This document shows positions 1,585 through 4,524 of a DNA stretch of 4,524 bases, one piece after another (position 1 is the first letter of the stretch; each line of letters starts with the position of its first letter). The stretch is from a virus (taxonomy: Duplodnaviria; Heunggongvirae; Uroviricota; Caudoviricetes). The stretch lies in IMG/VR virus record IMGVR_UViG_2778261639_000017; one strand, written 5' to 3'. The notes beneath the pieces were generated by a model. The model made no database searches. It was not told the DNA's origin and saw nothing but the letters and a program-made list of their open reading frames with translations. Both the position numbers and the translations under genes were made by a program.

Positions 1585-1613
1585 ATAGTACGATATGTAC
1601 TTTACAAGATCAA
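1585..1613 (-). promoter_or_regulatory. Candidate pL with an embedded operator: -35 TTGATC (+ 1608-1613), -10 TACTAT (+ 1585-1590), 17-bp spacer containing the 12-mer TAAAGTACATAT (+ 1593-1604)
   Basis: The same 12-mer sits at the same place in the spacer of the predicted PR (3 nt after the -35, 2 nt before the -10). The hexamers are moderate matches to the sigma70 consensus. An alternative -35 (TTGTAT) is possible. Confidence 0.4.
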
Positions 1614-1831: not shown

Positions 1832-2584
1832 TTATGCTGCAAGTCTCTTAATCCAAGTCTCTCTTTTGGAGAATGGTAGAACTTGGCTTGATTCATGGAA
1901 GAGTAAGGAGAGTTGTTGCATTTGATCACCAATTGCTTCGCTGTCTATAACAACAAATCTGTTGTTATACTCCTCACTTGAAGCTTTAAGATCAATTAGT
2001 TTCCCAAGCAATGAGTAAGCACTATTCCAGCTTCCTCCGTGTTTCACGCTTGATGTAAAAACGTATTTAGGTATGTCGGTTTTTATTGTTACAGGGACGG
2101 TAATTTGATGTCCACTCAAGCCATATACGTTTTCACGAAGAGAAAGTGCGTCTCTAAGCTCTGTGTGATATAGATAATCAATAACCATACTTTCAAACTT
2201 TTCAGCTTGAACTGGCTGATACCAGTCTAACGACAAAGTTGATGCGAGTATACCAGCTCTAATTATGTTCGATGTAATCGCACCGACATCCTTTTCTGTT
2301 GCCCAAGCAATGATTTCTCCTCGAGCATTGAGTTCTGCGCCTTCTTTAAGCAGTAATTGTCGTATCTCATCAAGTCGTTTTTTGGTAAGCGAGATCCCTC
2401 TTGCCTCCATATTCATTAAGGCATCGCATCTGTCACTAACTAAATACCTACCATTGACTTCACGGATAAAGGCACCGACATGCTCTCCATCATCACAGTA
2501 AGTGAATGGACTGATAATTCTCAAGGTCTTGCCTATTGGATGGCATTCGAAACCTAGTTGTGAGATCACTGTTGAGCACATCAT
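1832..2584 (-). CDS. Hypothetical protein, 250 aa, distal gene of the two-gene cassette in the rexAB-equivalent slot; function unknown
   Basis: Long minus-strand ORF. Its ATG (2584..2582) overlaps the TGA stop of the upstream gene in an ATGA arrangement, indicating translational coupling. No transmembrane-like segment, P-loop or other motif I can recognise. Not RexB-like (RexB is a small multi-pass membrane protein). Confidence 0.8.
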   Translation of the reverse strand: MMCSTVISQLGFECHPIGKTLRIISPFTYCDDGEHVGAFIREVNGRYLVSDRCDALMNMEARGISLTKKRLDEIRQLLLKEGAELNARGEIIAWATEKDVGAITSNIIRAGILASTLSLDWYQPVQAEKFESMVIDYLYHTELRDALSLRENVYGLSGHQITVPVTIKTDIPKYVFTSSVKHGGSWNSAYSLLGKLIDLKASSEEYNNRFVVIDSEAIGDQMQQLSLLFHESSQVLPFSKRETWIKRLAA

Positions 2585-3138
2585 ATTCCAAACCCCATTT
2601 GCCCCGACTCATCTTCAAGCGGTAAAGGTACTCTCCCAGAGTAAGTTATGTTCAGATGTTTACAGAAGTAATTCCAATACCCTACCAGGTCATCTGGGTT
2701 TATGTCATCTTCGATTGGAAACGCTATTCTATCACTATAGTATCCAGCTTCTTCATAGTATACATGGTAGTGAGCACCGTAAATGATATCTTGGTACTTC
2801 GGATGATCGACCTTGTAACTATTCGTGTGTTTGTCAAAGTGATAGGTATCTACCGCGAAAACCCTCTTGTTATGATAGAAAGCAATAATATTTATTTTAG
2901 GGTAAGAAATCGGGTCATCAGGTTCTGAATCCTGATCTGGTTTCCATTTCAGTTCAAACTTTAGCCCTTGTATAGGTATACAATCCTCATCCAAGGGGAT
3001 GATATGAGCTTGTAGCCACATATCAGAGCGACTTGGTTTCTGTTTCCATTTAACGCCAGAAAAGTTAACTATTTTTTTACAATAAAGTACTTTATCAACT
3101 TCTACTTGGCTTGGCTGATAATCATCTATTTTTGCCAA
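2581..3138 (-). CDS. Hypothetical protein, 185 aa, proximal gene of the two-gene cassette immediately downstream of cI; function unknown
   Basis: Minus-strand ORF bounded by an in-frame TAA two codons upstream. The only start consistent with full length is TTG at 3138..3136, with AGGGCGG about 6 nt upstream; the next in-frame ATG is at codon 40. The product is acidic and aromatic-rich (many D, E, Y, H) with no hydrophobic segments. It starts 39 bp after the cI stop. Confidence 0.7.
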   Translation of the reverse strand: MAKIDDYQPSQVEVDKVLYCKKIVNFSGVKWKQKPSRSDMWLQAHIIPLDEDCIPIQGLKFELKWKPDQDSEPDDPISYPKINIIAFYHNKRVFAVDTYHFDKHTNSYKVDHPKYQDIIYGAHYHVYYEEAGYYSDRIAFPIEDDINPDDLVGYWNYFCKHLNITYSGRVPLPLEDESGQMGFGI

Positions 3139-3177: not shown

Positions 3178-3831
3178 TCACCCAAACGTCTCTTCAGGCC
3201 ATTGGCTGGCGATAACTTTCCCCACAACGGAACAACTCTCATTGCATGGGATCATTGGGTATTGTGGGTTTAGTGGCTGTAGAAACACCTGACCGCTATC
3301 CCTGATCAGTTTCTTGAAGGTAAATTCATCACCACCAAGTCTGGCTATGCAGAAATCGCCGGGCTCAACAGCTTGCTCAGGGTCAACCAGAATTAACATC
3401 CCGTCAGGAAAGCTGGGTTTGGAACCTGTTGGTGCGGTCATTGAGTTACCTTCAACCTCAAGCCAGAATGCAGAGTCACTGGCTTTTTTGGTTGTGCTTA
3501 CCAATCTCTCCGCATCGCCTTTGGTAAAGGTTCTGAGTTCTGGAGAGAACATCCCAGCCTGAACATGAGAAAAAACAGGGTACTCATATTGTTTTTTAAC
3601 TGGGGCCGATGAGTATTCGCCAACAGGTGAAAATGTCCCGTCGTGGTTGAATGATATGTTATCAATACCAAGGTATTTAAACACCACACCAATATCACTA
3701 AGAGATGGATGACGAGATCCGCGCAACCAGTGTCCAATCCCACCCTGCGTCATACCTAGCTCTTCGGCTAACTTCTCTTGAGTTATGCCGAGCTCTTTCA
3801 TTCTGGATCTAGCCAGTTCATACCATTTCAT
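3178..3831 (-). CDS. cI: CI-type prophage repressor: XRE-family HTH N-terminal domain plus lambda-CI-type S24/LexA-like autocleavage C-terminal domain
   Basis: The C-terminal ~135 residues ([16 protein letters not shown]...SQWPEETFG) match lambda CI as I recall it at all but one position, including the Ala-Gly cleavage site (VQAGMF), the catalytic Ser (GNSMTAP) and Lys (FKKLIRD). The N-terminal domain ([38 protein letters not shown]...) is an unrelated HTH. Start chosen at ATG 3829-3831, which has AAGGA 7 nt upstream. Alternative starts are ATG 3835-3837 and ATG 3871-3873 (which would be leaderless-like, as in lambda PRM); TTG at 3879 is the track's limit. Confidence 0.9.
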
Positions 3832-3873
3832 TTTCATGTCCTTATTATTACGCTTTGTACTGGAACCATCCAT

Positions 3874-3946
3874 GCACAATGTGTATTTTTACTTGTATTC
3901 TTAAAGTACATATTGTATTTTTATTCGTGTTTACTATGGAGGGCAT
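3874..3946. promoter_or_regulatory. Divergent cI/cro control region (OR with PRM and PR). Candidate PR: -35 TTGTAT 3893-3898, -10 TATTTT 3916-3921, operator 12-mer TAAAGTACATAT 3902-3913 in the spacer. cro Shine-Dalgarno GGAGGG at 3938-3943
   Basis: Seen directly: an AT-rich intergenic region between the divergent repressor and cro genes, with recurring TGTA/TACA inverted motifs (for example the 17-mer TGTATTCTTAAAGTACA at 3894-3910, half-sites matching 6 of 8). The 12-mer is shared with the pL region in the same promoter-relative position. Confidence 0.6.
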
Positions 3947-4162
3947 ATGAGCAACCTACGAAAATATCGAGAGTCACTGAATATCTCTCAAACAACACTT
4001 GCTAAGGCAGTTGGATGCACACAGGGAGCTATCGGACATTGGGAATCTGGTCGTCGCTTCCCAGACCTTAAAACATGCCGTGCTCTTGTTGCATGCCTAA
4101 ACAAGTTAGGCGCAAAAGTCAGTCTTGATGACGTGTTCCCGCCGGAACATAAAGCCGCTTAA
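3947..4162 (+). CDS. cro: Cro-like HTH regulator (71 aa)
   Basis: ATG at 3947 is preceded by a strong Shine-Dalgarno (GGAGGG). The product has an XRE-type helix-turn-helix (ISQTTLAKAVGCTQGAIGHWESG). It is divergent from cI across the operator region. Stop TAA at 4160-4162. Confidence 0.85.
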   Translation: MSNLRKYRESLNISQTTLAKAVGCTQGAIGHWESGRRFPDLKTCRALVACLNKLGAKVSLDDVFPPEHKAA

Positions 4163-4172
4163 TAAGCGGATC

Positions 4173-4218
4173 CGCTCTTTGTAACAACGGACATTCGTCC
4201 TACGTCGCTGAAAAGCGA
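4173..4218 (+). promoter_or_regulatory. nutR: nutR: boxA (CGCTCTTTGTAACAAC, 4173-4188), spacer hairpin (GGAC-ATTC-GTCC, 4189-4200), boxB-like hairpin (TCGCT-GAAA-AGCGA, 4205-4218)
   Basis: Position-for-position parallel to nutL on the opposite strand (boxA, small hairpin, TACGT, then a 5-bp stem with GAAA loop). The boxB stems differ by base-pair-preserving changes (GGCU/AGCC versus CGCU/AGCG). Located just downstream of cro, as in lambdoid phages. Confidence 0.6.
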
Positions 4219-4303
4219 GTTCCAAGATATCTGACCAACTAAGGCCATATGCGTTTCCACGCATACCTTTCAACTAACTATTCACTATTGGAAATCTTAA
4301 GAA

Positions 4304-4450
4304 ATGGAAAGAACAAGTTACAGCAAACTATCACAGCGTGACGTTGATCGCGCAGAAACAGATTTACTTATCAATCTGTCAGCTATTACCCAGCGCGGTC
4401 TGGCAAAGATGATTGGCTGTCATGAATCGAAGATAAGCAGAACGGACTGA
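4304..4450 (+). CDS. cII: CII-like HTH activator, apparently truncated (48 aa) by an in-frame TGA
   Basis: Hand translation gives MERTSYSKLSQRDVDRAETDLLINLSAITQRGLAKMIGCHESKISRTD then stop. The HTH segment aligns with lambda CII (...LLNKIAMLGTEKTAEAVGVDKSQISRWKRDW...) as I recall it. Lambda CII is 97 aa. The frame stays open beyond the TGA to the window edge. Confidence 0.4.
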   Translation: MERTSYSKLSQRDVDRAETDLLINLSAITQRGLAKMIGCHESKISRTD

Positions 4451-4524
4451 ACCGCCCCGGGTTTCCTGGAGAGTGTTTTATCTGTGAACTCAGGCTGCCA
4501 GATCATCGTTTCCGATGGAAGCAT

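Follow-up and report, generated by a model that had tools for sequence, protein, structure and literature searches.

A 12-mer shared by pL and pR of a VT2-Sakai-type immunity region forms part of predicted 17-bp operators of the CI repressor

Introduction

Temperate phages of the lambdoid type keep their early promoters under the control of a repressor, and the DNA sites predicted to be read by that repressor distinguish one immunity type from another. In a 4,524-nt stretch of tailed-phage DNA (IMG/VR record IMGVR_UViG_2778261639_000017; referred to here, at its full length, as the window), an exact 12-mer, TAAAGTACATAT, lies between the −35-like and −10-like hexamers of both candidate early promoters. 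The initial annotation of this DNA took the two copies for the primary operators OL1 and OR1 of a CI-type repressor and the 12-mer itself for the operator sequence of the immunity type. The locus therefore raises the question of what the repeated element is: a repressor operator, and if so with which boundaries, a constrained part of the promoters, a site for another regulator, or a coincidence. Here, we address this question through the sequence of the window, earlier annotation of closely related phages, natural variation among phages with nearly the same DNA-binding domain, and comparison with distant relatives.

Results

An immunity region of the VT2-Sakai type

The ORF map, the Pfam matches and near-identical phage records together show the window, as read from its sequence, to be a lambdoid immunity region. 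It carries ral (111–311, − strand), sieB (525–1106, + strand), a gene for an N-type antiterminator (1123–1395, −), two genes encoding proteins of 250 aa with a DUF1828 domain (1832–2584, −) and 185 aa matching DUF6978 weakly (2581–3138, −), cI (3178–3837, −), cro (3947–4162, +) and a truncated cII (4304–4450, +). A search of 5,426 complete E. coli genomes found at least 80% of the window in 231, and phages such as ev207 and PhiR63_2 match it at 99% identity.

The genes at 1832–3138 (−) overlap, occupy the slot of rexA and rexB in lambda, and are followed by a terminator at 1807–1828. Of a candidate defence pair in PADLOC, PDC-M24B is matched at full length (E = 6e-10) and PDC-M24A partially (E = 5e-4), and on the strength of these matches the two genes are likely to form a prophage-borne anti-phage module co-transcribed with cI. 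At the other end of the window, the last 77 nt (4448–4524) are 100% identical to an end of IS629, matched in Stx2a_WGPS6. Of the 98 codons of cII, the element leaves the first 48 uninterrupted, and this prophage copy is thus without functional CII.

The Pfam matches of CI comprise an N-terminal HTH_3 domain and a C-terminal Peptidase_S24 (LexA-like) domain of the kind responsible for autocleavage and oligomerisation, which is the domain organization of a lambdoid repressor, and the two are joined by a lambda-type hinge; Cro matches HTH_3. The start of cI lies at 3837 or 3831, and its annotation is inconsistent among records, being placed at 3873 in PhiR63_2 and in the record of the Morioka Stx1 phage, and at 3831 in VT2-Sakai. 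From residue 84 onward, CI hardly differs from lambda CI (3bdn, E = 2.6e-96). Its N-terminal domain is only ~32% identical to that of lambda, which is nevertheless its closest solved N-terminal match (E ~2e-3). With the C-terminal part so near to lambda and the N-terminal part so distant, CI is a mosaic of a distinct DNA-binding module and the lambda module for hinge, cleavage and cooperativity, the latter encoded at 3178–3590 (−). At the level of domains, the protein is clearly mosaic between immunity types.

The N-terminal 95 aa of CI are 100% identical to those of VT2-Sakai (Sp5; AP000422) and of the Stx1-converting phage of Morioka V526 (AP005153). In both records, OR and OL each carry three features annotated as 'putative operator', alongside pL, pR, pRM, nutL and nutR. 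The positions of these promoters and nut sites are the same in the window, and the 17-mers of OR1, OR2 and OL1 are identical. OR3, OL2 and OL3, in contrast, each differ from VT2-Sakai by one base, the sequence 5′ of the operators is GAAG in VT2-Sakai and TAAAG in the window, the accessory genes between cI and N are not the same, and cII of the window is cut by IS629. Because the spacer bases differ, VT2-Sakai shares an 11-mer, GAAGTACATAT, between its two promoters rather than the 12-mer of the window. Given the same DNA-binding domain and operators that are the same or one nucleotide off, the sequence assigns the window to the VT2-Sakai/Sp5 immunity type.

The same 17-mers are tabulated by Yin et al. 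2015 (Table S5), who describe them as 'same as operator sequences in E. coli O157:H7 Sakai' and cite Fattah et al. 2000 as the source of the sequences. The labels in that table (Additional file 6) are apparently swapped relative to GenBank, the pR-side AAGTACATATTGTATTT appearing under OL3 and the pL-side TAGTACGATATGTACTT under OR3. As text, the 17-mer is absent from the main texts of the papers searched and present only in one supplementary table. The six operators of the VT2-Sakai type were predicted around 1999–2000 and are thus already known, both as annotation and as a published prediction. The sole binding data found on them were obtained with lambda CI, which is not the cognate repressor and bound with a micromolar apparent Kd, near non-specific.

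The early promoters and their shared 12-mer

Putative pR (3893–3921, +) consists of a −35 hexamer TTGTAT and a −10 hexamer TATTTT separated by a 17-nt spacer, with a predicted start at ~3928, and occupies the position of the annotated pR of Sakai. Putative pL (1585–1613, −) has the hexamers TTGATC and TACTAT, likewise 17 nt apart, and a predicted start at ~1578, upstream of nutL. With only 7 or 8 matches to the 12 positions of the sigma-70 consensus, the two promoters fall below threshold and neither is called by a simple scan, which consequently lends no independent support to the two promoters. A spacer of 17 nt separates the −35 and −10 hexamers in all variants (27 OR variants in the case of pR), and indels occur in the T-runs on both sides; fixed spacing with flanking indels is the pattern that a working promoter would show.

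A putative pRM (3844–3872, −; −35 TGGATG, −10 AATAAT at 3849–3844) was mapped by inference from the Sakai annotation. From the end of its −10 hexamer to the first ATG of cI (3837) is a distance of 7 nt, pointing to a leaderless cI mRNA like that of lambda. The pRM −10 and the cI ATG are similarly arranged in SEN22 and Vibrio phage H8.

Downstream of pL lies nutL, with boxA and boxB (1499–1539, −), and downstream of cro lies nutR (4173–4212, +). The position of nutL confirms, at the level of sequence, the direction and the approximate origin of the leftward transcript. The boxA sequences of nutL and nutR are GCTCTTTAA and CGCTCTTTG, and the boxB hairpins, at 1490–1512 (−) for nutL and 4200–4222 (+) for nutR, read GGCUGAAAAGCC and CGCUGAAAAGCG, with a compensatory difference at the outer pair of the stem. 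Further along, in the leader of N, upstream of the start of the gene at 1395, there is a 16-bp inverted repeat (1421–1468; 88% complementary) with a 16-nt loop, and this loop is among the more variable stretches in relatives. The hairpin may be an RNase III or translation-control element like that of the lambda N leader.

The 12-mer occurs in the window in exactly two copies, at 1593–1604 (−) and 3902–3913 (+), and any further match has at least two mismatches. The coordinates and strands given in the initial annotation are correct, as is the placement described there: each copy begins exactly 3 nt after the −35-like hexamer and ends 2 nt before the −10-like hexamer. On the + strand, pR thus reads TTGTAT (3893–3898), TCT, TAAAGTACATAT, TG and TATTTT (3916–3921); on the − strand, pL reads TTGATC (1613–1608), TTG, TAAAGTACATAT, CG and TACTAT (1590–1585). 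The recurrence of TACA and TGTA motifs nearby was confirmed as well.

An exact repeat of this length carries little weight by itself. First-order Markov simulations of the window yield ~1.0 direct and ~1.1 inverted exact 12-mer pairs, with at least one inverted pair in 60% of the simulations, and the window indeed contains another, clearly meaningless pair, the unrelated direct repeat CCCAAGCAATGA at 2003 and 2302 within a coding region. A sequence of 4.5 kb is therefore expected by chance to contain such a pair, in keeping with a view of the match as an accidental repeat in AT-rich intergenic DNA. The register of the two copies is another matter: that two promoter-like blocks should agree at 12 positions with equal offset has a probability of ~2e-6, and this placement is not due to chance. 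The similarity also extends beyond the 12-mer, with identity at 21 of the 29 positions of the pL and pR blocks and 18 matches over a reach of 21 nt (inverted repeat I3).

A predicted 17-bp dyad in a 3+3 layout

The sequence around the two copies shows that the 12-mer is not in itself the functional unit but the left, promoter-distal half and the centre of a longer, 17-bp dyad, nAnTACA-N3-TGTAnTn. At pR, bases 3–12 of the 12-mer fall in OR1 (3904–3920, +; AAGTACA-TAT-TGTATTT), which has the top dyad score and is identical to a 'putative operator' of AP000422 and AP005153, and bases 1–2 fall in the variable promoter spacer. At pL, bases 3–12 fall in OL1 (1586–1602, −; AAGTACA-TAT-CGTACTA), likewise identical to a Sakai putative operator. 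OR1 covers five of the six bases of the pR −10 hexamer, and OL1 five of the six bases of the pL −10.

The dyad recurs in four weaker predicted copies, which would complete a lambda-style set of three sites on each side. On the right, OR2 (3872–3888, +; ATGCACA-ATG-TGTATTT) abuts the putative pRM −35, and OR3 (3846–3862, +; TATTACG-CTT-TGTACTG), with one central base unlike Sakai, overlaps the pRM −10. On the left, OL2 (1611–1627, +; CAATACA-ATT-TGTTGTA) overlaps the pL −35 by 3 bp, and OL3 (1644–1660, +; TATAACG-CTT-TGTATTT) is part of a direct repeat (D20) that it has in common with OR3; both are one base unlike Sakai. The predicted sites between the divergent cI and cro genes thus overlap pR and pRM, and the second set, upstream of N, overlaps pL, as in other lambdoid phages. 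The direct repeat matches at 16 of 18 nt between 1640–1657 and 3842–3859 (TTTTTATAACGCTTTGTA and TTATTATTACGCTTTGTA) and takes in OL3 and OR3 with their left flanks, so that the O3 sites resemble one another more than either resembles an O1 site.

Several counts were used to assess the dyad. Of all sites in the window, OR1 and OL1 come closest to the ideal palindrome, with 15 and 14 of 16 positions, respectively, in a comparison that is partly circular since the ideal was derived from these two sites. In a hand tally, every one of the 12 half-sites of the six operators carries A5 and C6, giving the half-site consensus nAnTACA. An unbiased count of exact dyads of 3- and 4-mers in both control regions ranked ACA-N3-TGT and TAC-N5-GTA at the top, but was not significant alone (P = 0.14), and the degenerate core ACR-N3-YGT was therefore needed. 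This core occurs 10 times in the window against an expectation of 3.4 ± 1.7, a number reached in none of 200 shuffles, and six of the 10 occurrences (at 1590, 1615, 1648, 3850, 3876 and 3908) are the 3+3 sites of the control regions. The case for operators rests mainly on comparative sequence evidence.

Natural variation among homoimmune phages

The sample for the analysis of variation comprised 80 IMG/VR loci encoding a CI N-terminal domain at least 97% identical to that of the window, with 27 distinct OR and 36 distinct OL sequences. Among the 27 OR variants, positions 3905–3913 and 3915–3918 of OR1 are invariant, 3914 is T or C, and 3904 is slightly variable. Thus, the operator cores are invariant, in contrast to the adjacent spacer with its π of 0.34–0.68 (46 distinct sequences). 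The hypervariable segment runs from the pR −35 to OR1 (3899–3903, +), with a counterpart at pL (1605–1609), and is fixed in length. At 3900–3903, π is 0.53, 0.68, 0.61 and 0.34, with three or four alleles per site.

These data set the boundaries of the predicted operator. Bases 1–2 of the 12-mer (3902 and 3903, with π of 0.61 and 0.34) lie within the variable stretch, and the same holds at pL; they differ among phages with an identical DNA-binding domain. At the other end, the constrained unit runs on for 7 bp, through yGTAyTn, and, covering five of the six bases of the −10 hexamer, it overlaps the −10 instead of sitting neatly inside the spacer. Across 26 distinct pL/pR pairs, the exact run common to the two promoters measures 8–14 nt, with a mode of 11. 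Constraint thus acts on the 17-mer, and the 12-nt boundary is an accident of the lineage of the window. The sequence data thus agree with the initial annotation on function, and the assignment of OL1 and OR1 as predicted operators of a CI-type repressor, which matches the Sakai and Morioka annotation and the table of Yin et al. 2015, has good indirect support; the delimitation of the operator as the 12-mer was wrong.

The diversity of the segment between the −35 and O1 is unusual for this region. Its sites have a mean π of 0.54, far in excess of the 0.10 averaged over 138 four-fold degenerate positions in cI and cro, and none of 100,000 resamplings attained 0.54. The 5-nt stretch has 12 haplotypes compared with a median of two across cI-OR-cro. 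The spacer between OL2 and OL3 (1629–1638) is similarly hypervariable. Taken together, 3899–3903, 1605–1609 and 1629–1638 show 12–13 five-nt haplotypes and π up to 0.68 at constant length. Since the sequences are non-independent and were chosen by identity of the N-terminal domain, we regard this hypervariability as a lead rather than a result. Selection on promoter strength or on the induction threshold is a possible source of it, and so is a mutational hotspot.

Operator geometry and recognition in distant relatives

Within the window, the centre-to-centre distances at OR are 32 bp for OR1–OR2 (31–34 bp in variants) and 26 bp for OR2–OR3, and those at OL are 25 bp for OL1–OL2 and 33 bp for OL2–OL3. 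To place these values in the context of the family, we examined loci of repressors with N-terminal domains 46–56% identical to that of the window, recording start-to-start spacings of ACR-N3-YGT dyads from cI to cro. The longest-ORF starts overshot into OR at several loci, and spacing was taken only from loci with a sensible start. Three dyads were found in Salmonella phage SEN22 (26 and 34 bp), Salmonella phage SPN9CC (26 and 33 bp), a Pantoea piersonii locus (26 and 33 bp) and a Shewanella fodinae locus (26 and 32 bp), as in OR of the window (26 and 32 bp). A literature search for the SPN9CC operators gave nothing. In the Klebsiella-type loci, two clear sites are separated by 58 bp and the middle site is degenerate. 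Over the loci of the relatives, the density of the ACR-N3-YGT core upstream of the repressor gene is six times that in the remaining sequence. The C-terminal domain of CI is lambda-like in the window and in SPN9CC but not in SEN22, and the 26 / 32–34 bp pattern at OR is thus kept in the relatives from Salmonella, Pantoea and Shewanella despite differing C-terminal domains.

The half-sites change together with the presumed DNA-reading residues. Vibrio phage H8, with the recognition helix SQSAIAHW, has changed half-sites, and in a gammaproteobacterial clade with the helix TRGAVTHY the half-sites are GATAC...GTATC.

The comparative data effectively refute the accidental reading of the 12-mer: the core is invariant across 80 loci with variable flanks, and the motif is kept across genera. 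Taken with the register of the two copies, this leaves a coincidence hardly conceivable.

A second possibility is that pL and pR arose by divergence from a single promoter, and that the conserved part of the spacer and the −10 hexamer serve RNA polymerase rather than a repressor, supposedly through spacer conformation or a contact like that of an extended −10. The 21 common positions of the two blocks include the TTG of the −35, and part of the conserved block falls on the −10 hexamer, where conservation is to be expected in any case. Yet the dyad also recurs outside the pL and pR spacers, at OR2, OR3, OL2 and OL3, it is found with the same spacing in distant relatives that have different promoters, and its half-sites co-vary with the recognition helix. 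Moreover, the upstream part of the very same spacer is hypervariable, so that the spacer as such is not constrained. We consider a purely promoter-based origin of the conservation extremely improbable.

CI, Cro and other candidate regulators

The recognition helices of CI (TQGGIGHW) and Cro (TQGAIGHW) are one residue apart, and Cro is 35% identical to the N-terminal domain of CI. Such near-identical helices fit the binding of both proteins to the same sites, as in 434 and P22, and Cro very probably reads the same predicted operators. The sites might then be bound mainly by Cro, or by yet another regulator, with the prophage repressor acting elsewhere. The helix of Cro is as compatible with the dyad as this proposal demands, and no footprint or EMSA with a cognate Sakai-type CI was found in the literature searched. 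On the other hand, the helix of CI differs from that of Cro by a single residue, the repressor and Cro share operators in lambda, 434 and P22, and neither OR nor OL yielded an alternative repeated motif. Nor does either control region contain a LexA (SOS) box: a search for CTGT-N8-ACAG gave no match at up to three mismatches to the 20-bp consensus, and all matches to the LexA core with at most one mismatch are outside OL and OR. A LexA box was thereby ruled out as a rival element. Control by Cro or a third protein to the exclusion of CI is, in our judgement, very improbable. A search of Rfam at the gathering threshold produced no match in the window.

We conclude that the CI repressor of the window, through its helix-turn-helix N-terminal domain, in all likelihood recognises the 17-bp dyad nAnTACA-N3-TGTAnTn, and that OR1 and OL1 would be its strongest copies, through which pR and pL would be silenced.

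Discussion

The predicted control regions can be compared with those of several other immunity systems. As in lambda, cI and cro are divergent, three 17-bp dyads are present at each of OR and OL, O1 lies over the spacer and the first bases of the −10 hexamer, the hinge and C-terminal domain of CI are nearly identical, and OR2, centred ~43 bp upstream of the predicted pRM start (~3837), is placed for activation. The half-site, in contrast, is nAnTACA, compared with TATCACC in lambda OR1 as quoted in the literature.

Repressor and Cro of the window are both of the HTH_3 type with similar helices, like those of 434 and P22. In these two phages, the repressor and Cro use common operators. The fold of lambda Cro is unlike that of the HTH_3 Cro of the window. 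The 434 operator, ACAA-N6-TTGT, is unlike the operator of the window. The phages 933W and BAA2326 play the same role in Stx-phage immunity and have three OR sites, but they are of other immunity types, and their operators, unrelated in sequence, were mapped by footprinting; 933W has five operator sites in all, two of them at OL.

From this layout, a mechanism can be proposed. A CI dimer at OR1 or OL1 would lie across the downstream two-thirds of the pR or pL spacer and across most of the −10 hexamer, and would exclude RNA polymerase, so that the early lytic operons, cro-cII-O-P on the right and N on the left, would remain silent. Binding at OL2 would add occlusion of the pL −35, with OL3 further upstream. 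At OR2, beside the pRM −35, CI would activate transcription of its own gene, and at OR3, over the pRM −10, it would shut this transcription off, resulting in autorepression. On SOS induction, RecA-stimulated self-cleavage of the lambda-type C-terminal domain would free the operators.

The spacing of the sites may bear on how far the comparison with lambda can be carried. The centre-to-centre distances in lambda are ~24 and 23 bp at OR and ~24 and 20 bp at OL, as opposed to 32 and 26 bp at OR and 25 and 33 bp at OL in the window. Adjacent pairs near the lambda distance of ~2.3 helical turns, present on both sides of the middle site in lambda, are found here only at OR2–OR3 and OL1–OL2. OR2 is 8 bp further from OR1 than in lambda and is thus off the pR −35. 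Given that the OR1–OR2 and OL2–OL3 spacings (32–33 bp) are unlike those of lambda, cooperativity between OR1 and OR2 in the manner of lambda should not be assumed.

It may even be that the switch is wired unlike that of lambda, with OR1 standing apart from OR2 by 31–34 bp at a variable phase, and that the 4–5 nt from the −35 hexamer to O1 at both early promoters, whether under diversifying selection or subject to a mutational hotspot, tune promoter strength or the induction threshold. The lambda-like pairs at 25–26 bp would then be OR2–OR3 and OL1–OL2, despite the presence of lambda's own cooperativity domain. We hold this arrangement to be rather unlikely, but if true, tuning through the spacer would act among otherwise homoimmune prophages, Stx phages included.

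The locations of these operators have been on record as a prediction for 25 years, and the initial annotation adds nothing in this respect. The comparative data provide independent support for the old 17-bp prediction, reveal a 26 / 32–34 bp geometry across the family, and list natural spacer variants, TCTT, TCGC, TTGAG and TAAAA among them, with possible effects on induction. Immunity of the Sakai type governs the induction of Sp5, the Stx2 phage of the Sakai outbreak, and of many other E. coli prophages. Because this immunity type controls the induction of Sp5, its operators matter for understanding the release of Shiga toxin.
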